A DNA stretch of 64,000 nt from Eledone cirrhosa (taxonomy: Eukaryota). Under the pieces are notes generated by a model. The model saw nothing but the letters and a program-made list of their open reading frames with translations, was not told where the DNA came from and did no database searches. Position 1 is the first letter of the stretch; each line of letters opens with the position of its first letter. The stretch spans positions 334,428,001-334,492,000 of the forward strand of contig OZ024740.1 in NCBI GenBank assembly GCA_964016885.1, given 5' to 3'. Shown in pieces: positions 7,913 to 38,108 of this stretch. A program made the translations under genes and the position numbers.

Positions 7913-8050
<138 letters not shown>

Positions 8051-8190: not shown

Positions 8191-11100
8191 TTATATTGAC
8201 AGGATCTTCCTTAGTATATGGGCAGTTCCCATTAGTACTATCTTTTGTATTTCTCCTATACGCGGGTTTCCTGGGATTTGCGATAAGTAGTCGTTAGACC
8301 CCTTAGGTATCATTCCCAGAGCGCCTACAACCACTGGTATTGTTTTAGTTCTCAATTTCCACATTTTTCCAATTTCTATCTCCAGGTCCTTATACTTGCT
8401 CAATTTTTCAAATGTTTTTATAGATACATTCTTGTCTATTGGAACAGACATATCAATTAGCAGGCATACCCTCCTTTGAAAGTCCTTCAACATTATATCA
8501 GGTCTATTTGCATCTATTTTTCGGTCTGTTTGGATGCTAAAGTTCCACAAGATTGAGATGTGATCTTTTTCAAGTATGGGAGGTGGTTGATGCTCCCACC
8601 AATTCTTTTGATGGGGCAGGTCAAAATGCTTGCACATTATCCAATGTATGTATTGTGCAGCTCTGTCATGCCTGTTTAGGTATTCGGTTGGAGCTATAGG
8701 ACTGCACATTGAAATTATATGGTCAATGGTCTCTGGTTGTTTTTTGCATACACGGCATAATGGGCTGCACCCATTTTTTATTATGTTGGCTTGGTAATTT
8801 TTTGTTGGCAGACACTGATCTTGTGCGGATATAATCAGTCCTTCAGTCTCCGATTTCAGTCCAGAGGATGCCAACCACTGATGGGTTAAAGTTTTGTCAA
8901 CATCAGGATTGTTAGCTCGCTCTGGGTATTTTCCATACAGAGGCTTTTCTTGCCATTTCTTAGCCAGTTTCTGTAGCAGTTCTTTCTTTGCAGTTACTTT
9001 TACCTGCTTTGCTTTTTCTGTGTTTTCCATTTCAGCAGTAAATGGGACTTCTGAAATTTGTAGTCCATTACTGTATCTTTGTGCATCTTTTGTAATGGAA
9101 TATGATCTTTTGGTGCTTTCGTGTTTCAAAACGAGTTTGATCATCCAATCATGTGATTCCCTTAGATATGTGGATAATCCAATTGTTGCAGTTTTCAACG
9201 CAATGTCTAACTGGATTAACCCACGTCCTCCTTCTTTCCTAGGGAGATATATTCTATCTATGTCTGCCTTAGGGTGATGCATTCTGTGCATGGTTAAGAA
9301 TTTTCGGATTTTTGTATCGAGCCTACGGATCTCTGTGCTTGACCAGTTGATGACATTGTAACTGTAGGTTACTACTGGTATGGCAAGCGTGTTTATGGCA
9401 TCGATCCTATTCCTTGCATTCAATTCCGTTCTTAAGATTGCTCTGACTCTGCGGTAACATTCCTTCCTTATCCTTTCCCTCATTGTCGAGTGCTTGATTC
9501 CGTCTCCTTCACAAACACCTAGATATTTGTAAGTTTGTTCTTGATCAAGCTCTCTTATCACGTTCCCCCGATCAAGATTAATGTCTGAACTCTTCAGCAG
9601 CTTTCCTCTGGTGAACGTTGCTTTGGCGCATTTATCCAGTCCAAACTCCATTTTAATGTCATCACTGAACTGCTTCACAGTGGATAATAGCCCTTGCAAT
9701 TGTTCATCATTTTTTGCAAATAGTTTCAGGTCATCCATGTAGAACAGGTGATTAATGGTTTTGTCATAGACTCTATATCCATGTTTTGTTTCATTGAGCA
9801 TTTTACTTAATGGTATAAGTGCGATGCAGAATAAAAGCGGTGATAAAGAGTCACCCTGAAAAATTCCACAATTAATGTTAACTTCTCCAGCTTCCAGTGA
9901 TTTTGTTTCACTATTCAAAAGGAGTGTCGTTCTCCATATCCTCATACTGAATGACAAAAACCTCCTGATAACGGGGGATATTTTGAAAATCTCTAAACAT
10001 TTTTCAATCCAACTGTGTGGCAAACTATCAAATGCTTTTTTATAATCTATCCAAGCAATCGATAGATTTTTGTGTCTATTATGACAATCTTCCAGTATCA
10101 TTTTGTTAACCAGAAGCTGATCCTTACAGCCATATGAGCCTCGTTTACACCCTTTCTGCTCAATGGGAAATAGGTCATTTGTTATCAGGTGGTCATATGT
10201 GTATTCAGTTAGGACTGATGTTAAAATTTTATACATTGTGGTCAAGCAGGTTATCGGTCTGTAATTTTTGGGATTGTTTGTCTCATCATTCTTCGGTAGC
10301 AGGAATGTAATGCCGTTAACTAGCCATGATGGTATCTTTTCTGGCTCCTTAACTATTTCATTGTAAAGTTGGGCTAACAGCTCATGAGACTCTGTGAAGG
10401 CATTTATCCAAAAGTTTTGTATTTTGTCTTTTCCTGGGGATTTCCATTTGCTGGTTTTTCTTAGAGCCAAGCGCAGCTGTTCAACTGTTATATTTTCCCA
10501 TGTTTGTTCTTCAAGGTGAGCTGTTTCTTTCATTTGTCTGTCTATCCATGGGGCATGTATGTTATGAACTTTTTCTTCGGCCCAGATCTTTTCCCAGAAT
10601 TCTTGCACTTCCTCCTTGGGTGGTATTGATTTAGCAGTTATTGTTGACTTACCAATTTTTCTGTAGAAGTTTCTTTGGTTGTTTTTGAACATATTATTGT
10701 CCTTATAGAATCTAGATCGTTTTTCAAAGCGCCTTATACGAGCAGCTTTGGCCGACACTTTTTGCTTGATTGTTTCTATCAGCATGTCTATGTCACATGT
10801 TGATCTTATACTGTACTTTTTTTTCAATTTTCTAAGTTTAGTTTGTTTAACATGTTCACCTACTTTATAGTTTGTTAAAATTTCTATGTCAGATCGGAGA
10901 AGGTTTATTTGGCGATTGATGTTATCTTGCCAAGTAGATTTCTTGTGGGAATTCCTTTGTTTTTTCATCTTCACTCCACATAAGTGAGTGGTGACTTTAG
11001 CCGATGCATAATAGAGATGATTTAAGTCAGTAATGCTTAGTTTGTTTGTGATGATAATGTTTTTGAGAATTATGTTTGTCTTGTGTATTATCTTTTGGTT

Positions 11101-11841
11101 CTGTTTGGAGTTCTGGATCTTAGGGAGGGTGTCTCGTTCCCCCATGTCAGATTCTTTCATTTTCATCCATTCGATCATAATTTCATCCTTCAAGTTGGCA
11201 AGTTCATTCTCATTCATTTCTTTATCATTTACGATCTCATTATTTTCATTTGGAGTTTCATCCTGAGCATGCACTCCCTCCACTTTTTCGCTCCTTTCTT
11301 TAATTTGTTCTGTTGCCAGTGATTCCGCCCCAACTCTGGGATTCGAAGTGTTACAGTTTACCTCGTTTTCACTGACACATGCTTCATTTTCCCTTCGCTG
11401 ACTTTGTGCTACTAGCTTGATCTGATCAATTTCTATATCAGTTAGTAACTTTTTTCTTACAATATTTCTTCGTATATTGGCTAGTTTGTTACTGTCAATA
11501 TAGCCTCTGTTTTCGGGATGTTTCTTTTTCCAGTTGATATATGTTTGCTCTGTATTCGATGTATTTGATGGGTAGTACATGGCAGTGTAGAAAGCCTCAA
11601 GGACTTCTTTATTATCTTCCCTTGACCATTTTTCTCTCTTTTTCTTTGGATTTCTTGGTGGTGAGCATGGAGGGCCAACAGTAGGAGTATTCCGGTTATG
11701 GGAGGTCTCCAGCTCCGAAGTGATGGGAAGGTTTGAAGCATTAGCTGATTTTTCGACCCCAGTCTGGTTCCTCTCTGAGGGACGCGGCCCTTTTTTACCC
11801 GGGTGACGGCCGATCCGGTATGAGATTTCATCATTAGACAT
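8191..11841 (-). CDS. Non-LTR retrotransposon protein (RT, CCHC zinc knuckle, restriction-like endonuclease), R4/Dong-like, 1216 aa
   Basis: RT motifs KSPGKDKI, NYRPITCL, WIDYKKAFDS, GIFQGDSLSPLLF and HLFYMDDLKLF; GGRGL thumb; CRVC...HIISMC knuckle; RHD, RPD..D and EKLSKY RLE motifs; PVVVGALG C-terminus. No APE domain. Confidence 0.96.
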   Translation of the reverse strand: MSNDEISYRIGRHPGKKGPRPSERNQTGVEKSANASNLPITSELETSHNRNTPTVGPPCSPPRNPKKKREKWSREDNKEVLEAFYTAMYYPSNTSNTEQTYINWKKKHPENRGYIDSNKLANIRRNIVRKKLLTDIEIDQIKLVAQSQRRENEACVSENEVNCNTSNPRVGAESLATEQIKERSEKVEGVHAQDETPNENNEIVNDKEMNENELANLKDEIMIEWMKMKESDMGERDTLPKIQNSKQNQKIIHKTNIILKNIIITNKLSITDLNHLYYASAKVTTHLCGVKMKKQRNSHKKSTWQDNINRQINLLRSDIEILTNYKVGEHVKQTKLRKLKKKYSIRSTCDIDMLIETIKQKVSAKAARIRRFEKRSRFYKDNNMFKNNQRNFYRKIGKSTITAKSIPPKEEVQEFWEKIWAEEKVHNIHAPWIDRQMKETAHLEEQTWENITVEQLRLALRKTSKWKSPGKDKIQNFWINAFTESHELLAQLYNEIVKEPEKIPSWLVNGITFLLPKNDETNNPKNYRPITCLTTMYKILTSVLTEYTYDHLITNDLFPIEQKGCKRGSYGCKDQLLVNKMILEDCHNRHKNLSIAWIDYKKAFDSLPHSWIEKCLEIFKISPVIRRFLSFSMRIWRTTLLLNSETKSLEAGEVNINCGIFQGDSLSPLLFCIALIPLSKMLNETKHGYRVYDKTINHLFYMDDLKLFAKNDEQLQGLLSTVKQFSDDIKMEFGLDKCAKATFTRGKLLKSSDINLDRGNVIRELDQEQTYKYLGVCEGDGIKHSTMRERIRKECYRRVRAILRTELNARNRIDAINTLAIPVVTYSYNVINWSSTEIRRLDTKIRKFLTMHRMHHPKADIDRIYLPRKEGGRGLIQLDIALKTATIGLSTYLRESHDWMIKLVLKHESTKRSYSITKDAQRYSNGLQISEVPFTAEMENTEKAKQVKVTAKKELLQKLAKKWQEKPLYGKYPERANNPDVDKTLTHQWLASSGLKSETEGLIISAQDQCLPTKNYQANIIKNGCSPLCRVCKKQPETIDHIISMCSPIAPTEYLNRHDRAAQYIHWIMCKHFDLPHQKNWWEHQPPPILEKDHISILWNFSIQTDRKIDANRPDIMLKDFQRRVCLLIDMSVPIDKNVSIKTFEKLSKYKDLEIEIGKMWKLRTKTIPVVVGALGMIPKGSNDYLSQIPGNPRIGEIQKIVLMGTAHILRKILSI

Positions 11842-11995: not shown

Positions 11996-12920
11996 ACGGG
12001 GTTTTCTTTTTGTTGTTTTTTTTAAATTGTTATTATCATGAGTGGTTCCTTAATGTGAGCATTGCGTGGCTTAAGAATGAAATTATTAATAATTGTCTCC
12101 ACTCCAGGCCAGCAATCACCCAGTGCATTACAATAATATAATATACTTTTTGTTGTAGTTGGCTGTTATTGCTGCTGGCTATGTCGGTGGTGGTGCCGGG
12201 GCTTTTTATATTGTTGGTGAGGAAGGGGTGAGCCAGCAGTCCCATAATTGTTGATGTAGACATTTGTCCGTGGCAAGGTTACCAAGTCAATCTATTTATA
12301 TCTTTTGCTAGCCTCTCTCTTGTCTAGTGCTACCACCACCTTCCCTTTTCTCTCTCAAGTTAACAGGGGAATAGTGTCAGTAGCATTGAATGAGTGGTGG
12401 CGGCGATGATGGATGTGGTGGTGTTGTGGTTACTGATATAGTATCTATGAGTTTGTGTTCGTATGTTTAATATATATTTTCATTATATTTTGTGTTGACA
12501 TATTCCCGTAAAATTTGAATTAAACATTTTTTTAAATTTGAGACAATAATAATAGTAATTATTATTATGATGCCGGTGAAGTTGCCGTTATATTTAGTGT
12601 GATGGGATAGGTAGTGTATCAAGTTTCTGGTGTTGGTGAAATTGAAATTGCCGCTGTTCTATATAGTGTAGACAGAGGGTGTTTTGTTCCATTTATAACC
12701 ATTTTCTTTTTTTTAATACAAAATATATAATACAAAATTGAATATTTGAGCGATACAACAATATAATATGGATCCGAAACTTTATGGGACCTCATTCGGT
12801 GCCTTTATGCAACATTTGTGCTAAGAATTGTTCTTTCACAATTGATTTAAATATGTTAAAAATCAAAAAACTTACGGGAGCAATTTCGTGACGTTCTACC
12901 ACCTCGTGCGTCTTCTTCCC

Positions 12921-12922
12921 TT

Positions 12923-13000
<78 letters not shown>
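12921..13000. repeat. Compound microsatellite (TTC)10(TTA)~16 between B1 and A2
   Basis: Seen directly in the sequence. Confidence 0.98.
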
Positions 13001-13001
<1 letters not shown>

Positions 13002-13074
13002 CTTGAATCTCAGTCATTGATGTTGGTTAACTGGAAAGTCCGTTGGATTGAATATCAAGCCACTACCTGCAGCC

Positions 13075-16000
13075 TCAGATATTCAGGACGTATCGGAGGG
13101 TTCTTGCCGTTCCAAGCAAGCATGCCTTTTGAAGCGTTCCAAAAAGCGTGAAGGGGCCGATTTTCTTTAACCATCCCTGGAAACCTTTGGAGATAGTCCC
13201 CAGTGCGCCTATGACAATCGGGATCACTTTGACTTCATGGCAGTTCCAAATCCTTTTCACCTCCCACTTTAGGTCCTGGTATCGGTTAATTTTCTCCCTC
13301 TCCTTCTCTTGCACTCTCGTGTCGAACGGGCAGGCCACATCCACAATCAGGCACGATCTTTTTTCTTTGTCCACAACCACCAGGTCAGGTCTATCGTGTT
13401 CCAGTTTTTTGTCCGTCTGTATCCTAAAATCCCACAGCACCTTCACCTGACTGTTCTCCATCACCGCCTCTGGCCTATGCTCATACCATTTCTCAGAATG
13501 TGGTAGATTGTTTACTTTGCACAGGTGCCAGTGGATCACCCTGCCCATCACATCGTGTCTCCAGCCCTTATAGTGGGTCTGGGCTAGGTGTTTACACTCG
13601 GACACAATGTGAGCCACAGTCTCCTCTCTCTCTCCACAGATCCTGCACAGTGGGCTAGCCTCCTCCTTGTAGATATGGTGCTTCAACCACTTCGTTTTGA
13701 GGGCCTGCTCCTGCGCAGCCATTAGCATTCCTTCTGTAGCCTTTTTGAGGTCTCCTCTTCTCAACCAGTTCCATGTCTGTGGATCTCTAAATTCAGTTTT
13801 CTCAAAGAAGATACTATGAAGGGATTTTCCCTTAAGGCTGCTCTTCCTCCTTGATGTTATTTCCTCCTTGGGTATCCCCTGGCCTACTGTCCCCTCCTTC
13901 AGTACAGCTCTGAGCATTGGCTCCTTACTATAGGTCACGTATTTGTATAGGTTGTTTTTCTCCATCTGAACACAGTCCTCTATGCTGATAAGACCTCTTC
14001 CACCCTCAGATCTCCTTAGGTAGAGTCTATCGACATCACTCCTCTTGTGGAACATGTTGTAGATAGTGAATAGCTTCCTAGTCTTCCTATCCATTTCTTT
14101 TTGTTCAGCAACATTCCATCTCAGAATTCCCGCACTGTACCTAATAATAGACACAGCTCGGGAATTTACTGCGCTTATGGCATTTCTGCTGTTCAGATGT
14201 GACTTCAATACGCTCCTTACTCTCCGAATGTATTCAGTTCTTAACAATTCCTTCATTTTTTTGTTCTTTATGCCATCAGCCTCCAGAACGCCCAAATACT
14301 TGTATCCTTCCTCAGAGTCAATTTCCTTTATCATCTCACCTGTTGGTATCTGGATCCCGTTACTTCTGCTCAACCTACCCCTCCTCATCACAATGACTCC
14401 ACATTTACCAATACCAAACTGCATACATATATCACTGCTGAAAATACGGACAGTGTCAACAAGCACATCCAACTCCTTCTCACTTTTCCCGAAGAGCTTA
14501 AGATCGTCCATGAAGAGGAGGTGATTGATGGTAAGCTCTCCCCTTCCCAACTTGTATCCTGCTCTCACTTTTCGCAGCATAATGGTCAAGGGCATCAGGG
14601 CAAGGACAAACAACAGAGGGGACAGGCTATCTCCCTGGAAGATACCTCTCTTGATCTTCACGCTTCCCAAGGATACTCCAGTTGATGTCAACTCTGTCTG
14701 CCAGGACCCCATACTCCTGCCCAGCAACTGTCTGATGTTATCTGCCACCCTGAAGATCTCCAGGCTTTTGGTGATCCAGGAATGAGGCACCATGTCAAAT
14801 GCCTTTCTGTAGTCTATCCATCCCATGGCAAGATCAGTGTGTCTCCTCCTGCAATTCCCCATTACCATCTTATCAATAAGCAACTGGTCCTTTGTACCAC
14901 GTGACTTCTTTCGGCATCCTTTCTGTTCGTCCGGCAACAAGTTGTTTGTGTGGAGGTGATGGTAGATTTCCTCAGACACAATGCTCGTCAACAGTTTCCA
15001 CATTACGGGCAGACATGTGATAGGTCTATAGTTGGTAACATCATTACCCTTGATTCGGTCTTTCATTATCAGAACTGTGGTACCTTTTGTTAACCACTCT
15101 GGCACCTCACCCGACACCAAGCAGTCATTGAACATGGCCGTCAGCTTCGGGTGGAGGGATGTTAAATGTTTAATCCAATACCCCTGCACACCATCTGGGC
15201 CTGGTGATTTCCAGTTGGTTAGTTTTTTGGCTTGCCCCTTAAGAGTTTCAACTGTGATACTCAAATCAGTCTGTTGCTGTGCCTGCTCACCGATCTCCCT
15301 CTGTACTGTCTCAATCCACCCTGCCTGGGCATTGTGTCTAACATCCTGCTCCCATATTCCTCTCCAGAATGTTTTAGCTTGTTCCGCCCCAGGGATCAAG
15401 TCGGTGCCTCTTTCTTTCCCCTCAAGCTGTCCAAACAGCATCTTCTGGTTGTTGTCGAACATGCGGTTCTGTTTATACTGACTGACTCTGTTCTCGTATC
15501 GCCTGATTTTGGCACTCTTTGCTACAATGCGTTGCTTCAATTCCTCTATGATAATATTTAGCTTTTTACTCCTAGTTTTGTATTTTATTTCCAGTCTATT
15601 TTTAGTGCCTATGTTTTTTAGTGTCCCATTCAGTAGTGACTCAAGCTTTCCTATGTCATTTCTCATTTCCCCGATTTGCCCACTCAGTCGCTTCTTCCAC
15701 CACGGCTCTGCTCTTTCTTGTCTGTTGTTTCCTCTCGCTTTTATACCAAGTAGTTTCCTCACCGTATTTGCTGTTGCTTTGAGGATATTGTTGCACTGGT
15801 GAAGACTCCTCGCCTCAAGGTATGGGATGACTTTGTTTACCTTAGCTGTTGTTTCTTTTAACTTTTTCCTGTCTACAAATCTTAGGTTCATAGGTCTCCC
15901 ACTATCATTGTTCAACTCATCTACCACTAAATTTAGGATGTCAACCGAATCTTGTCCTAGCCCGTCAGCATTCATCTCCTCAGTGGCCGTATCTCTGTTC

Positions 16001-16467
16001 CAGGTATTATTTATCTCAGTATTCAGATCATTGTCTGCTTCGGGTGGTTCCTCCGCTCTCAGGACCTCCTCACCTTCATTTCCCGCCGGCTCGCTTGTCT
16101 GGCATACTACACCCGCCATCTCCAAGCCATTCTCTCTGCTCAGTTCCTCCAGTTCCAGCTCGCTTATCCACCCATTAGTTCTTATTACCCGAGCCTGCCC
16201 GGCCAATTTTTGTTCATCTAATTTAAATAAACCAATCTCGTTCCAGATGTTATGCATCCGTCTCCTGTAGCCCCTCTCCTTGGGGTTACTTTTCAGGTAG
16301 CATTGCATAACAGTTCTATTCAATTCTTTCGTCCAGTTGGTTCTGGCCCCTTTCCTTCTTCTTCTTCCTCCAACATCAGCAGTATTTCGTTGACAGTCAG
16401 GTTCCTGCTGCTGAGCCAGGGGGCACCTGTTGGGTGAGAGTCTGTCACATGACGTTCTAGTCTCCAT
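13075..16467 (-). CDS. Non-LTR retrotransposon protein (RT, CCHC, RLE), R4/Dong-like, 1130 aa
   Basis: Motifs WKSPGPDG, NYRPITCL, WIDYRKAFD, GIFQGDSLSPLLF, HLLFMDDLKLF, CRICG...HIVSEC, RHD, RPDLVVVDK...DVACP, EKINRY and PIVIGALG. Confidence 0.96.
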   Translation of the reverse strand: METRTSCDRLSPNRCPLAQQQEPDCQRNTADVGGRRRRKGARTNWTKELNRTVMQCYLKSNPKERGYRRRMHNIWNEIGLFKLDEQKLAGQARVIRTNGWISELELEELSRENGLEMAGVVCQTSEPAGNEGEEVLRAEEPPEADNDLNTEINNTWNRDTATEEMNADGLGQDSVDILNLVVDELNNDSGRPMNLRFVDRKKLKETTAKVNKVIPYLEARSLHQCNNILKATANTVRKLLGIKARGNNRQERAEPWWKKRLSGQIGEMRNDIGKLESLLNGTLKNIGTKNRLEIKYKTRSKKLNIIIEELKQRIVAKSAKIRRYENRVSQYKQNRMFDNNQKMLFGQLEGKERGTDLIPGAEQAKTFWRGIWEQDVRHNAQAGWIETVQREIGEQAQQQTDLSITVETLKGQAKKLTNWKSPGPDGVQGYWIKHLTSLHPKLTAMFNDCLVSGEVPEWLTKGTTVLIMKDRIKGNDVTNYRPITCLPVMWKLLTSIVSEEIYHHLHTNNLLPDEQKGCRKKSRGTKDQLLIDKMVMGNCRRRHTDLAMGWIDYRKAFDMVPHSWITKSLEIFRVADNIRQLLGRSMGSWQTELTSTGVSLGSVKIKRGIFQGDSLSPLLFVLALMPLTIMLRKVRAGYKLGRGELTINHLLFMDDLKLFGKSEKELDVLVDTVRIFSSDICMQFGIGKCGVIVMRRGRLSRSNGIQIPTGEMIKEIDSEEGYKYLGVLEADGIKNKKMKELLRTEYIRRVRSVLKSHLNSRNAISAVNSRAVSIIRYSAGILRWNVAEQKEMDRKTRKLFTIYNMFHKRSDVDRLYLRRSEGGRGLISIEDCVQMEKNNLYKYVTYSKEPMLRAVLKEGTVGQGIPKEEITSRRKSSLKGKSLHSIFFEKTEFRDPQTWNWLRRGDLKKATEGMLMAAQEQALKTKWLKHHIYKEEASPLCRICGEREETVAHIVSECKHLAQTHYKGWRHDVMGRVIHWHLCKVNNLPHSEKWYEHRPEAVMENSQVKVLWDFRIQTDKKLEHDRPDLVVVDKEKRSCLIVDVACPFDTRVQEKEREKINRYQDLKWEVKRIWNCHEVKVIPIVIGALGTISKGFQGWLKKIGPFTLFGTLQKACLLGTARTLRYVLNI

Positions 16468-17036
16468 TTCACCGTTATTCGAACTGTTTATGTTCGATAT
16501 TTAAACACTCTTATCGAGGATTGGCGAATGTATGTTTACATAGCCATCTGTGGATCCGCCATCCCACTTGGCCCTTGTGTGGCATTATCACCACGCTGTA
16601 TACGGACACACATAAACAAACAAACACACGGGCAGAAAGGGCCCCAAAAATGAATAAGCATAAGTTTCATTGTAATGTAGTATTCGAATGTCTGACTTAG
16701 TTTTTGTTTTTTAAGTTTTACTTTTTCCCCCCTCTTCTCTGTCCGTCCGCCTGCTTCTCTCTTCATTCTTATTTTCTTTACGTTTTTGGGGTTTCTTTTT
16801 TTGTTTTTGTTTTTCTCTGTTTTTCTCGTTTTTTACTGTTGTTGCTGTGCTGCTTTTGTTGTTTGTTTTTTCTTTTTTCTTTTGAGTCTATCTATATATT
16901 TTGATGCCTTCCTCTTTGTTGGTAGTAGGAATTCTATAATGTGGAAGTGGTAGCCAGCAGAGACTAGCGGCGTTGGCGATACTGAGACAGTGGTGGCGGT
17001 GATGTCGATACCGAGGCAGTGGTGGCGGTGATGCGA

Positions 17037-18012
17037 CCGTATTACTGTAGTGATGGTGCTGTAGCGGTGGCAGCAGCAGTGAAGGAGTCAGGGGGTGGTG
17101 GCGGCGGTGATGGGATAGTGGTGGTAATGATGGCCGTAGTGAGCGGTGGCGGTGAAGGTGAAAATGCTGTTGTGTTTAGTGTACACAGATGATGGGGTGG
17201 GTGGTGTATCTAGTTTCTGGTGTTGGTGAGTTTCGCTGTCCTATATAGTGTAGCCAGAGGAGAGGAGGGGGGGGTTCTTCTTCTTCCATTTATAGCCATT
17301 TTATTTTTTTTTTTTTTTTTGGATATACAGTGTACAATACAAAGTTGAATATTTGAATATTTGAGCCGTATTACTGTAGTGATGGTGCTGTAGCGGTGGC
17401 AGCAGCAGTGAAGGAGTCAAGGGGTGGTGGCGGCGGTGATGGGATAGTGGTGGTAATGATGGCCGTAGTGAGCGGTGGCGGTGAAGGTGAAAATGCTGTT
17501 GTGTTTAGTGTACACAGATTATGGGGTGGGTGGTGTATCTAGTTTCTGGTGTTGGTGAGTTTCGCTGTCCTATATAGTGTAGCCAGAGGAGAGGAGGGGG
17601 GGGGGGTTCTTCTTCTTCCATTTATAGCCATTTTATTTTTTTTTTTTGGATATACAGTGTACAATACAAAGTTGAATATTTGAATATTTGAGCCGTATTA
17701 CTGTAGTGATGGTGCTGTAGCGGTGGCAGCAGCAGTGAAGGAGTCAAGGGGTGATGGCGGCGGTGATGGGATAGTGGTGGTAATGATGGCCGTAGTGAGC
17801 GGTGGCGGTGAAGGTGAAAATGCTGTTGTGTTTAGTGTACACAGATGATGGGGTGGGCGGTGTATCTAGTTTCTGGTGTTGGTGAGTTTAGCTGTCCTAT
17901 ATAGTGTAGCCAGAGGAGAGGAGGGGGGGGGGTTCTTCTTCTTCCATTTATAGCCATTTTTTTTTTGGATATACAGTGTACAATACAAAGTTGAATATTT
18001 GAATATTTGAGC
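17037..18012. repeat. Three tandem copies of a ~325-bp unit in the A2 5' UTR
   Basis: Units start at 17037, 17366 and 17693 (ccgtattactgtagtgatgg...gaatatttgag). The equivalent region of A3 (~33597-33887) has a single copy. Confidence 0.95.
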
Positions 18013-18127
18013 CTTATAACAATATATTTTGGGTCCGAATTTTTTGGGGCTCAAGCCGGGTGCTTTACGTAGCATTTGTACGTAAGTTTTGAATTTTTAA
18101 CATATTTAAATCATTTGTGAAATAACA

Positions 18128-18128
<1 letters not shown>

Positions 18129-18192
<64 letters not shown>
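18129..18192. repeat. (TTA)n tract at the 5' end of A2
   Basis: Seen directly in the sequence. Confidence 0.98.
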
Positions 18193-21500: not shown

Positions 21501-23351
21501 CAGATTCTTTCATTTTCATCCATTCGATCATAATTTCATCCTTCAAGTTGGCAAGTTCATTCTCATTCCTTTCTTTATTATTTACGATATCATTGTTTTC
21601 ATTTGGAGTTTCATCTTGAGCATGCACTCCCTCCACTTTTTCGTGTCAGTGATTCCGCCCCAACCCTGGGATTCGAAGTGTTACAATTTACCTCGTTTTC
21701 ACTGACACATGTTTCATTTTCCCTTCGCTGACTTTGTGCTAATAGCTTGATCTGATCAATTTCTATATCAGTTAGTAACTTTTTCTTAACAATATTTCTT
21801 CGTATATTGGCTAGTTTGTTACTGTCAATATAGCTTCTGTTTTCGGGATGTTTCTTTTTCCAGTTGATATATGTCTGTTCTGTATTCGATGTATTTGATG
21901 GGTAGTACATGGCAGTGTAGAAAGCCTCAAGGACTTCTTTATTATCTTCCCTTGACCATTTTTCTCTCTTTTTCTTTGGATTTCTTGGTGGTGAGCATGG
22001 AGGGCCAACAGTAGGAGTATTCCGGTTATGGGAGGTCTCCAGCTCCGATGTGATGGGAAGGTTTGAACCATTAGCTGATTTTTCGACCCCAGTCTGGTTC
22101 CTCTCTGAGGGACGCGGCCCTTTTTGACCCGAGTGACGGCCGATCCGGTATAAGATTTTATCATTAGACATTTACTTTATTTTGTCGCGTTTTATCCTTT
22201 CCGCCAAGGGGTAATCATTTCGTGTTACCACTTCTAGAACGAGTGTCAACCAAGACTAGAGGGGTCGTTCTCCCCTAGAGACACGGCTATTCCCCGCCGG
22301 CCGCCATCCCGGTATTTCTTGGTCACGGGGTTTTCTTTTTTGTTGTTTTTTTAAATTGTTATTATCATGAGTGGTTCCTTAATATGAGCATTGCGTGGCT
22401 TAAGAATGAAATTATTAATAATTGTCTCCACTCCAGGCACAGGGCCAGCAATTACCCAGTGTATTACAATAATATAAAATACTTTTTGCTGAAGTTGCCT
22501 CTTATTGTTGTTAGCTATGTCGATGGTGGTGCTGGGGCTTTTTATATTGTTGGTGGGGAAGGGGGGAGCCAGCAGTGCTATAGTTGTTGACGTTTGGCCG
22601 GTGGCCGGGTCACTAAGTCAATCTATTTATATATTTTGCTAGCCTCTCCCTTATCTAGTGATACCGCCACCTTCCCCTTTCTTAAGTTAACAGAAGGTAA
22701 TGGGGAATAATGGTGGTAGCAATGAAGGAGTGGTGGAGGCGGTGATGGGATAGTGGTAGCAATGATGGATGGAGTGGTGGCGGCGGTGGCGTTGTCGTTA
22801 CTGAGTTTTGTTGAATAGACTGTAGTTTTGTTTGATCTGTAGTATCTATGCGTTTGTTTCGCGTATGTTTAATATGTGTGTTGACATATTCTCTTAATAT
22901 TGGATTTAAACATTTTGTTAAAACTCGAGACATTAATAATAGTAATTATTATTATGATGCTGGGATTGGTGGTGGTGGTGATGAAATTGCCGTTATCTGG
23001 CTGTTATATTTAGCGTACACAGCGGGGTGATGGGGTAGGTGGTGTATCTAGTTTCTGGTGTTGATGAAATTGGTGTTACTTGGCTGTTCTATATAGTGTA
23101 GACAGAGGGGGTTTCTTTCATTTATAACCATTTTCTTTTTTGAATATAAAATATATAATACAAAATTGAATATTTGAGCGATATAACAATATATTATGGA
23201 TCCGAATTTTTATGAGACTTGATTCGGTGGTTTATGCATCGTTTGTACTAAGAATTGTTATTTCACAATTGATTTAAATATGTTAAAAATCAAAAACTTG
23301 CGGGAGTGATTTCATGACCTTCTACCACCACGTGCGTCTTATTCCCTTATC
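18595..23351 (-). pseudogene. Decayed family B copy B2 with stops, frameshifts, deletions and a missing 3' tip
   Basis: ORF fragments at 18632-22171 are collinear with the 1216-aa ORF, and the 5' UTR and 5' terminus match B1. Confidence 0.95.
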
Positions 23352-23479: not shown

Positions 23480-23697
23480 GAATACTATGGTTGACAGAGG
23501 CTCGGCTCTGTAAGGTATTGTAAATTTTGAACGGTATAACAATTGTAAATTGTTTAAAACTTTTACCAACTTGTAGACAAAAACACCCTCCTCCCCGTGA
23601 GAGGGGTCTTTCTGTCCGTTATTTGGCCCTTCGGGATTAAATAACTGCTCATTGGGGTTTTGTTTCCAATATTTATTTTAAACAAAAAAAAATCAAC

Positions 23698-25799
23698 ATG
23701 GCTACGAAAAAGAATTTTCATAGGTCACTCCCACTCATTCCGTCTTCTTCTTCCTCAATCGTCACTACAACAGAGAGAAGATTGTCTCTCTCCCTCCCTT
23801 CTTTAAATGTGTCTCTCTCCCGCTCTTCTCTTTCGCAAGCGACGACAGAAAAGAAAAGTCTCGTGCAAAGCGTGCAAGATTTCTCCACGACGACGACGAC
23901 AACGACGACGAAACAGGTGTGCGGGAAATACGAAAACCCATTTCATTCGTCTGACGTAAGGAATAATAGCAGTAGCAGCCGTAATAACAACAGCAACAGT
24001 GACAATGAAAACAACAGTAGCAGCCGCAACAGCATCAGCAGCAGCATAAAGAACAACAGCATTAGCAGCAACAACAACAGCAGCAGCAGAAACAACAACA
24101 ACAACCACAGCAACAGCGGCGGCGGCAGTAGTCGTAGTACCTGCAGCAACAACAAAAGTAACAGCAGCTCTGACAACAACAACAACAACAACAACAGCAG
24201 CAAAGAAAAACCAATCTCGTTTGCAGGTATCGCGAAGAACCTCGAAACAATCCTCATAACAAATGAAGAATTACAGGAAGCGAAGAAGATGGTGACAAAA
24301 ACTGGACACCGAGCAATCTGCAAGGCAGCCGAAACATTTTTCGAAACCCAACAGTACTGTACGGTCACGTACCGTACAGTAAGTACAAAATCCCGTAGGG
24401 TGGAAAGAGCCACAGAGGCTTAAATACAAAAAGCCTTGGGGTCTGTGTGGCAGCAGAAAACACACATCACCCGAGGCAAGAAATATGCCACCGTAGACGT
24501 ACTTTTTGCCACACCCCAGGAGGCAAAGGCTCAATCCGTAGTGACCCTAAGGAGCGAGGAAATGGTGTTGGTGCCCTCCTACTGCGGGCAAAAAATTGTG
24601 AGGGTCAAACTGACCCCCCCCCCCGGGATGGCCGTGTCTGTCCTCGTCGGAATCGAGGACAAAACAACTGTACTGCAAGTACAGAAAAAAGTAAGAGAAG
24701 ATTGGGTCGGCACCTCCATTGAGATGTTAATCCAAACCAACCAGGAGTGCATCGAAGCTATCCTGGATGTGATAGACTTCGATAACGGCACTCAACTGCC
24801 CATAAGTGTTGAGGGCAAACGCCCGAAATGCTTTCGCTGTGGATCGAAGACTCACCTCAGGGCCTTCTGCAACGAGAAGACCCTGAGAAAGGAGAAAACC
24901 TCCCTCCTTCCGAAACCGGCTCCACGGCTACCAGCAACAGGACAAGCGGCAACCAGGAACGATAGATCCGTGGCACCCATACCCACGCCACGGAAATCAA
25001 AAACAGCAGCAGCAGTGGAAGTATTAACAACAACAACAACAGCAATACCAAATGCAGCTGCAACAGAGACTCCAGTGCAAACATCACCAACAACAAGTGA
25101 AAGAGTGGAGCTGGTACCCCTCCCGACCTCACATAATCAGACATGGAGTGTGAGGTGGGAGAGGGATGGCAAAAGGTCGTAAGAAGGCACAAACGCAGAA
25201 GCAGCGCATCGTCGCCTTCGAAAAGGGAGGAAAGAAATGAAAAAAGGGTAAAGGCTACTGCAAAGAGACTCACAGCAGCAACACCACCAACACCATCACC
25301 ACCCACACTAGCACCACCATCACCACCGGCGACAACAACAACACCTTCAACACCACCACCACAAGAACCAACATCGCAAACACAACAACAAAACACACAC
25401 ACCCAGCAACAACGACAAGAAAATAGCAGAACCACACCCCACCCCCAGAAAAACAAATGCACGGCAATAAATACACACAACAAGAAACTAATGACTTACA
25501 TAATTGAACACACAGACATTTCACAACACGACTACATAATACCAGCACCAATCAAAACGCCAACTAACATAAGACTGCTAAAAATAGCACAGAAACAATA
25601 CACAAACATTAAAACGAAATTCCCCAACGCAGTTGGTGATTTCAGAGACCTAGGAGGAACTATCAACCGAAGAGTATATTCGGACATACTCATAGAAGAG
25701 CCGATGACCAGCCGAAGGGACGATTCAACGGTCCCTTCACAAGACGATCAAGTGAAAAGGGATGTAAAAACCATCCCTCCTCTACGAAAAGTACGGTAA
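23698..25799 (+). pseudogene. Tx1 ORF1 (gag-like, zinc knuckle) interrupted by an in-frame TAA at 24421 and a frameshift near 25140
   Basis: 23698-24423 and 24436-25182 share a frame. It contains a CFRCGSKTHLRAFC CCHC knuckle, a WQKVVRR motif in the shifted frame and low-complexity S/N/T/P tracts. Confidence 0.8.
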
Positions 25800-25834
25800 G
25801 TGGTCTTTCCCATCTTTTCCACTCTATTTTAAAC

Positions 25835-28800
25835 ATGACCTCACTCAGAATAGGCAGCATAAATGCGCGTGGCTTGGGGTCGTCATGGAAGCAGGGCCAC
25901 CTGCTCAACGACCTCAGGTCACTAAACATAGATGTAGTGGCCATCAGCGAGACCAGAATCTCCGAAGCACAGGCTTTCGCACCGATCTTCGGCGGCTACG
26001 ATGTGTACGCATCTCCCAGCCGTCCGGGATCGGGGGGAGGAGTTGCTGTGCTTTTTCGGAAAGGTTTGGATCTTGCCATACGGGCCATCTTCCTGGACCC
26101 AGAAGGTAAGTTGGTGGTGCTGGACGTGACCAGCGGAGACGGGCAAGCTTTCAGGTTAGTGGCCGTCTATGCCCCGACAGGAGCAGGGCGGCCTGATTTC
26201 TTCCGGCGTCTGGAGACCTTTCTTGGAACGTCCCGCTCTTTAGTGTTAGTGGGCGACTGGAACGGGATCTTAGATACACGCTGGGATTGTGTGGGATTAG
26301 TGGATAGAGAAGGAGGGTGCAAGAGTCTCACCAACCTGCTCAGACGTTTTGAACTGTCTGACAGGTACCGAATGGATTTCCCGAATGTACCAATGTGGAC
26401 TTGGACAAATCGCATAGGGTCATCCAGATCATATCTAGATAGAGTATTGTGTAGGGAAATAGATAGGTCTAGCATAGGCTGTCCACAATTCAAGATAGTC
26501 AGCTACACGGACCACAAATTCGTGATCTGTGTGCTTGACTTAGATAGGCTTCATAGACGAGGACCCGGCTACTGGAAGTTAAACGCGTCCTTACCAGCGC
26601 GCAAGGCCTACAGAGACCGGATTAGCGAACCAGTTAAGCGGGCGTTGACGGGGGCCATCGTCAACAACATGTGGTGGTTTGCTCTGAAAAGAGCAATTAG
26701 AATAGAGTCCATTAGGTTTAGTAAGACTTTAGCAATAGAGAAAAATAGAGCAGAGGGAGAATTAGTTAGAAAATTAGATGAGGCGCTTAGCAAAGGCATC
26801 GCGACCGACGTACTTGCGGCGAAATTGGCCCTTGACCAATTCTTCAATGCAAAGCACGAAGGCTGCGTTGTCAGAGCTAGGGTGCGTGCTCTCAGACACG
26901 AGGGAGCGAAAGCCGTTCAATGGGCCCGAGTGGCGGAGGCGCATCGTGGCAACAAAGCCACGATCCGGTCTTTGGTGGACCACGACGGGCGCATGCTACT
27001 CGATCCCGGGCAAATGTGTGAAGCTTTTCAGCGACACTTCGCTCAACTGTTCGGGGGCAGTGGCGGGCCGGATCGAGGGATGGACTTTAGTGTCTACCTC
27101 GACGGACTGCCGCGGCTTTCGGCCACTGAGGCGGAGTGTTGCGAAAAGCCGATAACAACCGCTGAAGTACGGGATGCAATGACTGGCTGCACAAGGGGTA
27201 AATCGCCTGGTTTGGATGGTCTGCCCTATGAACTTTACGTACAAATGCCAAACTTGTTCGGATGCCTCTTGGCGGACGTCTACTGCAACTGGCAACAGAA
27301 CGGGAGAATTCCCAGCTCTGTGAGCCGAGGAGCGGTGGCGCTGCTGAGAAAGGATCCGAACAAGGGGGATAACATAGATAATTTTAGGCCCATAACTCTG
27401 CTAAACACAGAGTTCAAGATTTTGGCCAAGGTGCTAGCAAAGAGGTTGGCACTTGTCGTTGGTGGTCTGGTGGGAGAGGCACAGACATGCGCCATTCCCG
27501 ACAGATCCATCCACGACAACCTCCACCTCATGCGATACATCGTAGAGAGGGTAGCTAGGGAACCTGGCACGGGTGGGTCTTTGATCAATTTAGATCAGTC
27601 GAAAGCCTTCGATAGGGTCGACCATCGTTACCTAGCGGCAGTCCTGAGGGCGGCTGGCTTTGGGCCCGTCTTCAGAGGCTGGATCGCTGCCATGCACAGC
27701 GACATCTGCTCTGTAGTGAGAGTGAACGGTCACCTTTCGGAACCGTTCAACATCATGCGCTCGGTCCGCCAAGGATGTCCCCTCTCGTCCCTATTGTACG
27801 TATTGACTCTCGAGCCATTACTGCACAAACTGGAGACGTTGAGGGGGGTCCCGCGCGAACTAGGATGCGGAAGATCCGTGTCAGCATATGCCGACGATGT
27901 CACCGTAGTGGTGTCGAACGCCAAACACATCGAGGCGATCGGCACTACACTAAGAGAATACGAAGCGGTGGCAGGATCAATGATCAATCAGGAAAAGTCA
28001 GTGGGCCTGCAGCTCGGCACCTGGGGAGGCAGGTCCATGCCGTCCAACAGCGTCGTCGGGCGCTGGACGGACGGACCGGTTAAATTGCTAGGGGTCTGGT
28101 TCGGTCCAGACCTCCAGACGGACAAAAACTGGGACGAGGTGACGAGCAGGGTGGCTTCTCTCACCCAGAAATGGACCGAGAGGAAGCTATCCCTGAAAGG
28201 TCGAGCGGAGGTGGCGAATGCGTACATCGCATCCGTCATCTACTACCGCCTGACCGTCGTACCTTGTCCTAAGCCCCGCCTGACTGCGCTGGAGCGTTTG
28301 CTCTTTCGCTTCTTGTGGAAGGGACGCTCTCCGATGGTCAGGTCGTCCATCTGCTGTCAACACCCGCTACGTGGAGGGATGGGCATGCCGTGGCTGATGA
28401 TGCGCAGACACGCGCTCAGGCTACGACATCTCCACCTCTTCCTCGACGGTGATCAGGTGTGGTCGCCGTTTGCAAGACACGTTTTTCCCCAGCTCGTCTC
28501 CTTGACGGAGCTGCAGTCCTGGGTCAAGCGAAGACCGAGAGGGAGCGCTTGGAGACTGGAATGTCTTCAGGCGCTCACAGCCCTCGACCAATCGGGCAAT
28601 GTGATCGGTGGAAACTCCACCTTGGCGTTCTATAGGGGATTAGTGGAGGGGAAGAGCGACGACGTACTTGGAGAAACTCTAGGCGTCGACGAAAATCAAC
28701 TAGCCAATCTCTTCGGAAGGACTTTCGGGCCGGGGCCTATGGACAACTTCCAGAAATCCCTGGCCTGGCAGTGCTACCGAGGAGCTTTGCCAGTTCGGGA

Positions 28801-29254
28801 TAAACTCTACAGGCATGGAGGTGCCGTCAGCCGGGCATGTCCGAGATGCGCGCAGGGCGACGAAACCGTCCTGCACGCACTCGTCCAGTGTCCGAAAATT
28901 GCTGACTTGTGGGTTTATGTCGAACACCTGCTGTCACGTGTAGGACGGATCCAGCTATCAGCTGAGTCCATCGTGAGGATTGCCCCGCCCTCTTCCTTTA
29001 GCCTGGAAGGGCAGGCAGTTTTTATCTGTCTGGTGGCCATGGCGAAAGAGATAGTATGGTGGACACGTTTGAAAGGGCTGAAGACGAGCACTTACCTCTT
29101 CGGTGATGCCCTGATTACCTTTTTCAAATTTCATTTGAAAAGGAAAATCAGGGTAGAGAGGGAAGTGCTCTCTTCCCAGCATTTTGTTGAAAGATGGGTG
29201 AGAGAAGCAAGTATGGCCCGAATGAATGGGCCTTCTCTGAGTATATATCTGTAA
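25835..29254 (+). CDS. Tx1-clade ORF2: APE endonuclease, reverse transcriptase and C-terminal zinc finger, 1139 aa
   Basis: APE motifs SINARGL, ISET, VYAP, GDWN, SYLDR and TDH; GYWKLN linker; RT motifs KSPGLDGL, FRPITLLN, DQSKAFDRV, VRQGCPLS and AYADD; CPRC...H..VQC finger. Confidence 0.96.
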   Translation: MTSLRIGSINARGLGSSWKQGHLLNDLRSLNIDVVAISETRISEAQAFAPIFGGYDVYASPSRPGSGGGVAVLFRKGLDLAIRAIFLDPEGKLVVLDVTSGDGQAFRLVAVYAPTGAGRPDFFRRLETFLGTSRSLVLVGDWNGILDTRWDCVGLVDREGGCKSLTNLLRRFELSDRYRMDFPNVPMWTWTNRIGSSRSYLDRVLCREIDRSSIGCPQFKIVSYTDHKFVICVLDLDRLHRRGPGYWKLNASLPARKAYRDRISEPVKRALTGAIVNNMWWFALKRAIRIESIRFSKTLAIEKNRAEGELVRKLDEALSKGIATDVLAAKLALDQFFNAKHEGCVVRARVRALRHEGAKAVQWARVAEAHRGNKATIRSLVDHDGRMLLDPGQMCEAFQRHFAQLFGGSGGPDRGMDFSVYLDGLPRLSATEAECCEKPITTAEVRDAMTGCTRGKSPGLDGLPYELYVQMPNLFGCLLADVYCNWQQNGRIPSSVSRGAVALLRKDPNKGDNIDNFRPITLLNTEFKILAKVLAKRLALVVGGLVGEAQTCAIPDRSIHDNLHLMRYIVERVAREPGTGGSLINLDQSKAFDRVDHRYLAAVLRAAGFGPVFRGWIAAMHSDICSVVRVNGHLSEPFNIMRSVRQGCPLSSLLYVLTLEPLLHKLETLRGVPRELGCGRSVSAYADDVTVVVSNAKHIEAIGTTLREYEAVAGSMINQEKSVGLQLGTWGGRSMPSNSVVGRWTDGPVKLLGVWFGPDLQTDKNWDEVTSRVASLTQKWTERKLSLKGRAEVANAYIASVIYYRLTVVPCPKPRLTALERLLFRFLWKGRSPMVRSSICCQHPLRGGMGMPWLMMRRHALRLRHLHLFLDGDQVWSPFARHVFPQLVSLTELQSWVKRRPRGSAWRLECLQALTALDQSGNVIGGNSTLAFYRGLVEGKSDDVLGETLGVDENQLANLFGRTFGPGPMDNFQKSLAWQCYRGALPVRDKLYRHGGAVSRACPRCAQGDETVLHALVQCPKIADLWVYVEHLLSRVGRIQLSAESIVRIAPPSSFSLEGQAVFICLVAMAKEIVWWTRLKGLKTSTYLFGDALITFFKFHLKRKIRVEREVLSSQHFVERWVREASMARMNGPSLSIYL

Positions 29255-29492
29255 ATTAAAGGTGGAAAACTGGGAGAGGGCACTTGCCTTGGTGGTCAGG
29301 GTCATTGTGGCTTTTTACTGGGCTTTATCCACAAATGTCCCTCCGAAGTCTGCCCCCTATTGGGGAATTTTTCATTGTTATTTTTTGTTACATCCTCTTT
29401 TTTTGTTTTTTACACGCAGAAATGCCCATTTGTACCGTCCTGCATTGTCCTGCACTGTCCTTAATGTCTACTTTATGTAAACCCTTGTGGTT

Positions 29493-29498
29493 AATAAA
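29493..29498 (+). terminator. Polyadenylation-signal-like AATAAA at the T1 3' end
   Basis: AATAAA lies 6 nt before the (ATT)n flank. Confidence 0.55.
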
Positions 29499-29504
29499 GA
29501 AATC

Positions 29505-29534
29505 ATTATTATTATTATTATTGTTGTTGTTATT
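29505..29534. repeat. Short (ATT)n(GTT)n tract shared tail-to-tail by T1 and A3
   Basis: Seen directly in the sequence. Confidence 0.95.
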
Positions 29535-32500: not shown

Positions 32501-33942
32501 AGCATTCATCTCCTCAGTGGCCGTATCTCTGTTCCAGGTATTATTTATCTCAGTATTCAGATCATTGTCTGCTTCGGGTGGTTCCTCCGTTCTCAGGACC
32601 TCTTCACCTTCATTTCCCACTGGCTCGCCTGTCTGGCATACTACACCAGCCATCTCCAAGCCATTCTCTCTGCTCAGTTCCTCCAGTTCCAGCTCGCTTA
32701 TCCATCCATTAGTTCTTATTACCCGAGCCTGCCCGGCCAATTTTTGTTCATCTAATTTAAATAAACCAATCTTGTTCCAGATGTTATGCATCCGTCTCCT
32801 GTAGCCCCTCTCCTTGGGGTTACTTTTCAGGTAACATTGCATAACAGTTCTATTCAATTCTTTCGTCCAGTTGGTTCTGGCCCCTTTCCTTCTTCTCCTT
32901 CCTCCAACATCAGCAGTATTTGGTTGACAGTCAAGTTCCTGCTGCTGAGCCAGGGGGCACCTGTTGGGTGAGAGTCTGTCACATGACGTTCTAGTCTCCA
33001 TTTCACCGTTATTCGAACTGTTTATGTTCGATATTTAAACACTCTTATCGAGGATTGGCGAATGTATGGTTACATATCCATCTGTGGATCCGCCATTCCA
33101 CTTGGCCCTTGTGTGGCATTATCACCACGCTGTATACGAACACACATAAACAAACAAACACACAGGCAGAAAGGGCCCCAAAAATGAATAAGCATAAGTT
33201 TCATTGTAATGTAGTGTTCGAATGTCTGACTTAGTTTCTGTTTTTTAAGTTTTAGTTTTTCCCCCCTCTTCTCTGTCCGTCCGCCTGCTTCTCTCTTCAT
33301 TCTTATTTTCTTTACGTTTTGGGGTTTTTTTGTTTTTTTTTGTTTTTGTTTTTCTCTGTTTGTTTTTCTCGTTTTTTGCTGTTGTTGCTGTGCTGCTTTG
33401 GTTTTGTTGTTTGTTTTTTCCTTTTTTCTTTTGAGTCTATCTATATATTTTGATGCCTTCCTCTTTTTTAGCAGTAGGGATTCTATAATGTGGTGGCAGC
33501 AGCCAGCTAAAGAAGTGGGAGACTGGCGGCGGTAGCGATACTGAGACAGTGGTGGCGGTGATGTCGATACCGAGGCAGTGGTGGCGGTGATGTGACCGTA
33601 TTACTGTAGTGATGGTGCTGTAGCGGTGGTAGCAGTGAAGGAGTGAAGGGGTGGTGGCGGCGGTGATGGGATAATGGTTGTAATGATGGCCGTAGTGAGC
33701 GGTGGTGGTTTAGTGTACACAGGTGATGGGGTGGGTGGTGTATCTAGTTTCTGGTGTTGGTGAGTTTGGCTGTTCTATATAGTGTAGACAGAGGAGGAGG
33801 GGGGGGGGTTCTTCTTCCATTTATAGCCATTTTCTTTTTTGGATATACAGTGTACAATACAAAGTTGAATATTTGAATATTTGAGCCTTATAACAATATA
33901 TTTTGGGTTCGAATTTTTTGGGGCTCAAGCCGGGTGCTTTAC

Positions 33943-37000: not shown

Positions 37001-38100
37001 CTTTGTTCCAGGTATTATTTATTTCAGCCTTCAGATCATTGTCTGCTTCGGATTGTTCCTCCGTTCTCTCAACCTCTTCACCTTCCTTTCCCACTGGCTC
37101 GTTTGCCTGGCATACTCCACCCTCCATTTCCAACTTAATCTCTCTGCTCAGTTCCTCCAGTTCCAGCTCGCTTATCCACCCATTAGTTCTTATTACCCGA
37201 GCCTGCCCGGCCAATTTTTGTTCATCTAATCTAAATAGACCAATCTCGTTCCAGATGTTATGCATCCGTTTCCTATAGCCTTTCTCCTTGGGGTTACTCT
37301 TCAGGTAACGTTGCATAACAGTTTTATTCAATTATTTCGTCCAGTTGGATCTGGTCCCTTTCCTGCTTCTTCTTCCTCCAACACCAGCAGTATTTGGTTG
37401 ACAACCAGGTCCCTGCTGCTGAGCCGGGGAGCACCTGCTGGGTGAGAGTCTGTCACATGACATTCCAGTCTCCACTTCAGCGTTATTCGAACTGTTTAGG
37501 TTCGACATTTAAACACTCTTATCGAGGATTGGTGAATGTATGGTTACATAACCACCGGAGATTTCATCACCTCCGGTGATTTCATCATGCCCGGGGATTT
37601 TAGTGTGGGGCTATCACGCTGTAGACGAACATAAATAAACAAACAAATAGGTACCCCCCCCCCCCAAAAAAAAAAGAATAAGCATAAGTTTCATTGTAAT
37701 ATAATATTTGAATGTCTGACTTAGTTTTTTTCTTTCTTGTCTGTCTGTCTGTTTGTTTTTTCTTTTTTTTCTTTTCTTTACGTTTTTCGTTGCTGCTGTG
37801 CTGTTTTGATTTTTATGTTTTATTTTTTTATTTTTTTTATTTTTTGACCGGGTCATCAAATCAGTCTATTTATATCTTTTGATGCCTTCCTCTTTTAATG
37901 GGAATACTACGATGCCTGTCTTAGCAGGAGGTAGTGGGAGTGAATAACGGCGGTAGCGATAATGAGAGAGTAGTGGTGGTGCTGAGCTAGTAGTACTTAG
38001 CAGGAGGTAGTGGGAGAGAATAGCGGCGGTAGCGATAATGAGGCTGTGGTGGTGGTGATGTGATCGTAGTACTGTAGTGATGGTGTTGAAGTTGAAGTAG
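34030..38100 (-). pseudogene. Decayed family A copy A4 (older subfamily, closer to A1)
   Basis: ORF pieces 34104-35429, 35430-35897, 35913-36260 and 36270-37331 are collinear with family A. It shares diagnostic residues with A1 (e.g. HKPESVIENDQV, CQANEPVG) and has a partial 5' UTR. Confidence 0.93.
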
Positions 38101-38108
38101 AAATAGAA

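Follow-up and report, generated by a model that had tools for sequence, protein, structure and literature searches.

The locus

Two retroelement families, A and B, are chained together in the window, i.e. the whole 64,000-nucleotide stretch of Eledone cirrhosa DNA that was analysed (contig OZ024740.1, 334428001-334492000; surrounding genome 3.0 Gb). The chain extends from 4.6 to 38.4 kb of the window, its elements being linked by (TAA)n and (GAA)n microsatellites in the order A4, A3, a plus-strand Tx1 element, B2, a Tx1 fragment, A2, B1 and A1. An earlier sequence-only reading of this DNA by a model had proposed that the two families, despite very different proteins, share a homologous 5' non-coding module. 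This module, called the leader below, and the way it came to stand in front of both families are the subject of the present analysis. All A and B elements of the window lie on the minus strand, a correction to that reading. The features that bear on the leader are the following (ORF, open reading frame; UTR, untranslated region; RT, reverse transcriptase; RLE, restriction-like endonuclease; APE, apurinic endonuclease; nt, nucleotides; aa, amino acids).

8191..11841, minus strand: ORF of B1, 1216 aa, with RT, CCHC knuckle and RLE (RHD, RPD...D..P)
12270..12920, minus strand: shared 5' leader of B1, full length, starting GGGAAGAAGACGCACGAGG at 12920; its 3' limit is approximate
12690..12920, minus strand: core of the leader in B1, the part whose old versions are colinear with the Tx1 5' UTR
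12702-12700, minus strand: ATG of B1 at the position of the Tx1 ORF1 start, presumably vestigial in B1
12821..12875, minus strand: candidate 55-nt intron, GTAAGT...TTCTTAG, in the B1 leader
12921..13000, no strand: (GAA)n(TAA)n between the 3' end of A2 and the 5' end of B1, a head-to-tail A-B junction
13075..16500, minus strand: open frame of A2, 1141 aa (first Met at residue 12), with RT, CCHC and RLE
16880..18131, minus strand: leader of A2, B-derived type, 5'-truncated
17037..18017, minus strand: 327-bp leader unit in A2, three tandem copies, 96% match
18081..18131, plus strand: leader nt 45-93, inverted, at the 5' end of A2
22600..23346, minus strand: shared leader of B2, full length; the B2 ORF is broken
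23480..29505, plus strand: Tx1-type APE-RT element in the same TAA array, in opposite orientation
29609..33034, minus strand: open frame of A3, 1141 aa
33430..33943, minus strand: leader of A3, one unit, starting at about leader nt 108
37850..38107, minus strand: A4 remnant of an old-A UTR

A leader common to both families

The upstream segments of B1 and B2 align with those of A2 and A3 as the sequence-only reading had described, with self-BLAST E values from 1.6e-23 to 3e-45 and, over the coordinates given in that reading, 82.8-86.0% gap-free identity in all four cross pairs. B1 12575-12852 was matched to A2 17813-18111 (E 1.6e-23), B1 12599-12788 to A3 33723-33922 (E 1.7e-29) and B2 23009-23211 to A3 33709-33918 (E 3e-45). 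Of two further blocks said to be shared, ggcggtgatgggatagtggt was found exactly at 22738, 17103, 17432 and 17759; tctatttatatcttttg is exact at 12291 and 37865, but only a mismatched variant of it stands at about 16887. The statement that ORFs and proximal UTRs cannot be aligned as DNA holds for the most part, two short matches in the RT region being the exceptions (53 nt at 75%, 98 nt at 67%).

The full leader begins GGGAAG directly after the microsatellite (B1 12920, B2 23346) and, since it spans about 650-700 nt, the separate blocks of the earlier reading are parts of one leader. A and B start alike right after the microsatellite, with GGGAAGAAGACGCACG(A/T)GG, and the common part of about 650-700 nt reaches to the block CAAAAGATATAAATAGA, beyond which 400-550 nt of family-specific UTR follow. 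The 5' ends of leader-bearing copies are precise. Genome-wide, 886 start patterns of A type, 554 of B type and 147 of old-A type were counted, the A-type and B-type patterns overlapping slightly. In the window, the A2 leader has lost nt 1-44 and carries nt 45-93 inverted, and that of A3 starts from about nt 108. The inverted piece of A2 (18081-18131) begins exactly at the GTAAGT donor-like site, and the inversion resembles the twin-priming inversions of L1, so that a twin-priming-like origin may be assumed.

An A or B body follows the leader at 39 of 40 start-motif loci (16 of the 40 were chosen for unusual starts), at 29 of 30 B-type and 29 of 30 old-B matches, at 30 of 30 loci of a leader marker and at 17 of 20 old-A starts; among 30 A-type matches it follows in all 28 that were visible. 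In the exceptions L093 and L035 the leader is interrupted by other insertions, and the remaining ones are L138, L251, L259 and L265. No solo leader with a 3' tail of its own was found among the start-motif, B-type, old-B, marker and old-A loci sampled. The idea that an independent, small SINE-like (short interspersed element-like) unit caps both families could draw on the abundance of the leader, with about 1,400 start motifs in the genome. However, the regular presence of a body and the lack of a tail make it very improbable, and the leader is neither free-standing nor an unattached common repeat. In L093 the leader is cut after 95 nt by an inverted insertion, which looks Penelope-like, with a GIY-YIG-like motif. 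In L128, L137 and L247 the leader runs directly into the middle of the ORF, as internal deletions.

Two separate lineages and an older relative

Both families have a single ORF (1141 aa in A, 1216 aa in B) with RT, CCHC knuckle and RLE motifs. Pfam gave RVT_1 and weak zf-RVT matches and no Exo_endo_phos match, i.e. no APE domain, and the closest solved structures are R2 proteins. The patterns CX2CX8HX4C, RHD and RPD...D..P were seen, the first being the knuckle and the other two RLE motifs. A TAA or GAA run was found within 60 nt at all 51 full-length 5' ends. A and B are non-LTR (non-long-terminal-repeat) retrotransposons inserted in (TAA)n, and they are termed Dong/R4-like because neither the homolog lists nor the tree held a protein named Dong or R4. 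A Myb/SANT-like domain at the N-terminus is described in R4-clade elements (PMC7998251), and no Pfam match to Myb was obtained in A or B at E<=0.1, a search that included no dedicated Myb/SANT profile comparison.

Protein identity between A and B amounts to 36% overall and 41% in the RT region, and their top-120 homolog lists have two entries in common. In an RT tree of 70 rows (a subsample of 238 matches plus three window proteins) B lies at a distance of 0.98 from a protein labelled Penaeus japonicus against 2.08 from A, and it is closer to proteins labelled Penaeus and Diaphorina than to A. Judged by these comparisons, A and B are two deeply separated lineages that share (TAA)n targets. In parallel, the entries P0002 (A-like, 68%) and P0207 (B-like, 57%) indicate that another genome may hold both lineages together.

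A third family, C, was found through flanking sequences (L191-L235); it is older, decayed and related to B, with about 45% aa identity. The leader was not found in the 5' UTRs of family C at 25 loci, except for one 36-nt block in L234, and it is therefore not general to these elements. Family C possesses 5' UTRs of its own, apparently of two kinds upstream of one common proximal part. A short block that L234 and L198 share with the old-B leader hints at a still older exchange. A protein search aimed at further families returned A copies only.

Exchange rather than inheritance

Leader and ORF tell different histories. Five copies with a B ORF, named Bx, are 97.6% identical to B in the ORF, and their leader is 95.7% identical to young A against 82.1% to other B. 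In the same way, old and young A agree at 92.3% in the ORF and at 63.2% in the leader. The leader alignment behind these values left out seven old-B leaders in which the end motif could not be located, as well as 10 of 24 old-A loci without a start. For the ORF comparison, 7 of 43 B loci and 2 of 38 A loci were set aside because too short a part of the ORF was present. In the leader tree, young A leaders nest among B-lineage leaders, on starred branches. Approximately unbiased (AU) tests on 36 of the 76 leaders, for which the Bx label was assigned after the identities were known, rejected the grouping of A-ORF leaders in a single clade (p 1e-46, or 3e-4 when Bx was left out) as well as a single clade of B and Bx leaders (p 2e-4). 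Moreover, a 31-nt leader marker occurs at 221 sites, the first 30 of which belong to 18 A and 12 B bodies. Because the two histories disagree in identities, in AU tests and in the junctions described below, the 5' leader must have passed between A and B more than once, from each family to the other, and the likeness is not one of conservation. The suggestion that a 5' cassette had moved between co-resident families is thereby borne out: the leader tree does not agree with the ORF trees, and junctions are preserved in both directions. Neither outcome that the sequence-only reading had named as refuting it was obtained.

That the leader was simply inherited from the common ancestor of A and B hardly deserves any weight, even if conserved 5' extremities are known among divergent L1 families within one species (PMC5381506). 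Such descent is refuted for the young leaders by the AU tests and is hard to reconcile with 96-97% leader identity across a 41% RT divide, with the preserved junctions and with the B-related family C that lacks the leader at 25 loci; what remains to it are the oldest leaders, whose 73-75% A-B similarity comes without a preserved junction.

Junctions and order of events

The junction from B to A was found at 4 of 30 marker loci, where a B-type leader runs through ...ATCACTAGACAA, followed by 15 unassigned nt and then by old-A leader from about nt 175. It has 34 exact copies in the genome; among the copies fetched, an A ORF lies downstream in 12 of 12 and leader upstream in 10 of 12, and these copies form basal branches among the A-side leaders. 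Later A copies are without this junction, and their deletions end in repeated CAC-rich blocks. Finally, the youngest A copies have a duplicated 327-bp unit, two units being present at 22 of 29 other A loci and three in A2.

In the other direction, the Bx copies contain A-derived middle segments. The return to B sequence takes place at three different points, and every one of them falls within a short motif common to both families. Two junction classes comprise 8 of 12 and 4 of 12 copies, and a third type was found in L070. This means at least three events from A to B, or one that was followed by re-recombination with B. Both the formation of a B-to-A hybrid and an A-to-B return through at least three junctions are thus visible in the genome.

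Between old A and old B, leader identity is 73-75%, a level that would reflect an early transfer in one direction or the other. A B leader of about 650 nt was then joined onto an old-A leader near nt 175 and the hybrid multiplied. Loss of its middle between repeated CAC-rich blocks gave present-day A, and the A-side leader later moved back onto B bodies.

Origin and possible function of the leader

The 5' UTR of a Tx1 family, together with the start of its ORF1, can be aligned with old leaders over the stretch that begins at leader nt 1 and includes an ATGG at about +210 to +225. This family is TAA-associated and its ORF1 is 55-60% identical to that of the Tx1 element of the window (23480..29505), which is a relative of it. 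Against Tx1 5' UTRs, 8 of 8 older leaders outscored 300 of 300 composition-matched genomic controls, and young leaders were marginal, their score being reached by 1-2 of 300 controls. A profile search of the leader against Tx1 gave a best E of 9e-6, with E<1e-3 in 5 of 43 old leaders. In the Tx1 family this ATG is the start of a long ORF1, but in old A a stop follows after 8 codons, so that the transfer likely went from Tx1 to the Dong-like elements. It is likely that the leader was captured from a Tx1 5' UTR as an L1-type promoter. Since L1-clade 5' UTRs contain internal promoters, as established for mammalian L1 (PMC5381506), the leader is likely to act as an internal promoter for RNA polymerase II. 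AAAATGGC was first read as YY1-like, an interpretation given up because its ATG aligns with the Tx1 ORF1 start. The CAC(G/A)(A/T)G at +13 is E-box-like.

The leader may also contain an intron of 55 nt, a prediction that serves as a lead only. Of 152 contexts, 129 retain GTAAGT at about +45. All 38 young leaders, but none of 14 old-A leaders, have an AG near +100. Spliced genomic copies were not found among the 152 distinct donor-site contexts in the loci sampled. The joint at the predicted intron was found in none of four public DNA data sets, whose coverage is uneven, so that this is no evidence against splicing.

According to another explanation the exchanged part would be a self-cleaving ribozyme similar to that of hepatitis delta virus (HDV), which frees the element from read-through transcripts. 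The Dong element of Bombyx mori self-cleaves at its 5' junction (PMC3774820), and the precise 5' ends found here would suit such a process. Nevertheless, folding z-scores of the first ~150 nt range from -0.3 to +1.2 in 6 of 6 copies, the consensus fold of the alignment reaches -2.6 kcal/mol with 0 of 15 pairs compensatory, and no Rfam ribozyme matched window positions 4000-42000 at E<=5. In addition, an HDV descriptor, run without a positive control, gave 0 matches in five leaders and five UTRs. No hammerhead core was found, nor any pile-up of 5' ends inside the UTR, in a sample biased to full-length copies. We consider a ribozyme improbable.

How the hybrids may form

The explanation that we judge the most probable, with some reserve, combines a repeated two-way exchange of the leader between A and B, a leader that is likely an RNA polymerase II promoter from Tx1, and hybrids that likely arise through microhomology joining in head-to-tail arrays. 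Within such A/B arrays a new or neighbouring body would be joined by microhomology, at the DNA level, to the leader of the other family, either at insertion or by later deletion. An A 3' end lies just upstream of 12 of 26 full-length B copies and a B 3' end just upstream of 5 of 25 A copies, in the same orientation. The truncated 5' ends of A4 and L106 are joined straight to the upstream neighbour with an overlap of 2-3 nt; in A4 this neighbour is a 3' fragment of another A-type copy and no TAA lies between. In L030 (2404-2745) an A leader and an 18-nt piece of the 3' end of an A ORF are followed by an intact B start. This amounts to an A body deleted ahead of B, an arrangement from which a hybrid could arise. 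It is because A and B are common neighbours, because of the direct joins in A4 and L106 and because of the deletion in L030 that joining at the DNA level is favoured.

After a first capture the shared blocks would ease further swaps, from which reciprocal traffic would follow. The swaps would be tolerated if, as assumed, recognition by the element protein depends on the element's own 3' end, and hybrids that gain a working or less repressed promoter would be the ones to spread.

Alternatively, the same exchange of the same likely promoter would take place at the RNA level, the RT jumping between the RNAs of the two families near their 5' end. Donor leaders are sister to contemporaneous active leaders, the junctions lie in short shared motifs, and the 15 unassigned nt of the B-to-A junction could be untemplated; in vivo template jumps were described for R2 (PMC3414825). 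Yet the R2 jumps land on another RNA at its 3' end, a tRNA ending in CCA, and not in the middle of a UTR, and DNA recombination was called 'more likely' for R2/R1 hybrids by the same authors (PMC3414825). That A and B are often direct neighbours also speaks against a jump. The B-to-A junction itself fits both modes of joining and does not discriminate between them. We rank microhomology joining, as the fairly probable mode, over template switching, which we hold to be rather unlikely.

Several observations weigh against the explanation preferred here, microhomology joining of a Tx1-derived promoter included. The B-to-A junction, with its 15 unassigned nt, shows neither a clear microhomology nor a TAA target. 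To join across an entire neighbour, about 4 kb would have to be deleted, more than in the joins of A4 and L106, and donors that are active alongside recipients fit RNA template switching equally well. For the origin from Tx1, E<1e-3 was reached in only 5 of the 43 old leaders and in none of the 38 young ones, and the match is of about 52% in AT-rich DNA. The promoter role is predicted by analogy with L1-clade 5' UTRs. As regards the exchange, the leader evolves faster than the ORF even inside B (78% versus 93.5%), so that identities alone overstate the contrast, and the two basal branches of the RT tree are weakly supported (0.51, 0.28).

Relation to known systems

The nearest precedent is the recruitment of 5' UTRs by mouse L1 (Sookdeo et al. 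2013, PMC3600994), where a lineage swaps its 5' UTR while the ORF continues, with re-recruitment from co-existing families, tandem monomers and a discussion of the same three candidate mechanisms. The partners in mouse are, however, families of one L1 lineage over the last 13 million years, whereas A and B are RLE lineages with an RT identity of 41%, transfer went both ways and the first junction can still be seen. As the recipients are RLE elements and not APE-type L1, the present case is a variant of L1 recruitment and not a member of it. Conservation of the 5' end was also described among divergent L1 families of lizard, frog and zebrafish (Boissinot and Sookdeo 2016, PMC5381506), in which co-resident families share their first bases. 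It concerns motifs or about 100-120 bp, in contrast to the transfer of several hundred nt indicated here by junctions and trees.

Hybrid R2/R1 SIDEs (short internally deleted elements) of Drosophila (Eickbush and Eickbush 2012, PMC3414825) likewise combine the 5' module of one site-specific family with the 3' part of a second family found at the same locus, and they have several origins. They are non-autonomous and their module is a ribozyme, whereas the present hybrids keep a full ORF, have replaced the parent leader in A and have a module without detectable fold. Dong of Bombyx mori and R4 (PMC3774820, PMC7998251) share with A and B the single ORF with RT and RLE, the (TAA)n target and tandem nesting; B. 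mori Dong starts with an HDV-like ribozyme (PMC3774820), as opposed to an unstructured Tx1-like leader of about 650 nt. In Octopus vulgaris, Dong-R4 is listed as having the most recently active LINE (long interspersed element) insertions, 1129 in five families (PMC13282606), and the terms 'UTR' and 'chimer' do not occur in the main text of that paper. In full-text literature searches, which do not reach most subscription journals and Repbase reports, neither an exchange of leaders among RLE lineages nor a capture from Tx1 by Dong was found described. The present system differs from the known ones in being reciprocal, in involving autonomous RLE lineages, in its preserved intermediates and in its likely cross-clade origin.

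A more tentative thought, to which we give less than even chances, is that unrelated LINEs exchange promoters by way of the (TAA)n arrays. A clade of RLE elements that depends elsewhere on read-through and a ribozyme would have taken a Tx1 promoter, become transcriptionally autonomous and since traded the best-working or least repressed versions. A burst of new copies would then start with each leader capture, and the rapid change of the leader would reflect an arms race in which host repressors are the other side. In L1 the source of a new 5' UTR is often not known. Here, regulatory ends of LINEs move between lineages far older than the exchange events, and since intermediates persist in the genome the succession of events is directly readable. 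That A and B have their own promoter would be a testable reason for their high activity in this genome. Natural pairs, with one leader on different ORFs or one ORF behind different leaders, make it possible to separate the effects of promoter and enzyme on amplification. In practice, copies will be assigned wrongly by repeat libraries in which A and B are merged or split according to their 5' ends.

Further observations

One more feature of B1 concerns its proximal UTR.

12105..12135, minus strand: SINE-like 3'-end fragment fixed in the B proximal UTR (B1 copy)

The fragment is a piece of the tail of an abundant tRNA-like SINE; its B2 copy (22417-22461) matches window positions 48524-48568, and a full SINE copy sits in the leader of L180. 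A GC-rich block before the B ATG (window 11860-12000, minus strand) allows GACCAAG/CTTGGTT and AGAACGA/TCGTTCT pairings, a putative pseudoknot, and did not fit the HDV descriptor. Runs of (GAA)n lie between the TAA target and 5' ends that begin GAAGAAG-like, at window positions 7911-7978 and 12921-12952 and in L061, L134, L139 and L142. These cases include the A1 copy, which is truncated within its ORF, and the elements appear to produce GAA microsatellites at their own 5' junctions. Finally, self-BLAST revealed several long stretches towards the right end of the window that are inverted repeats or fold back on themselves, at 47748-48363, 49321-52960, 60302-61398 and 61459-61640.

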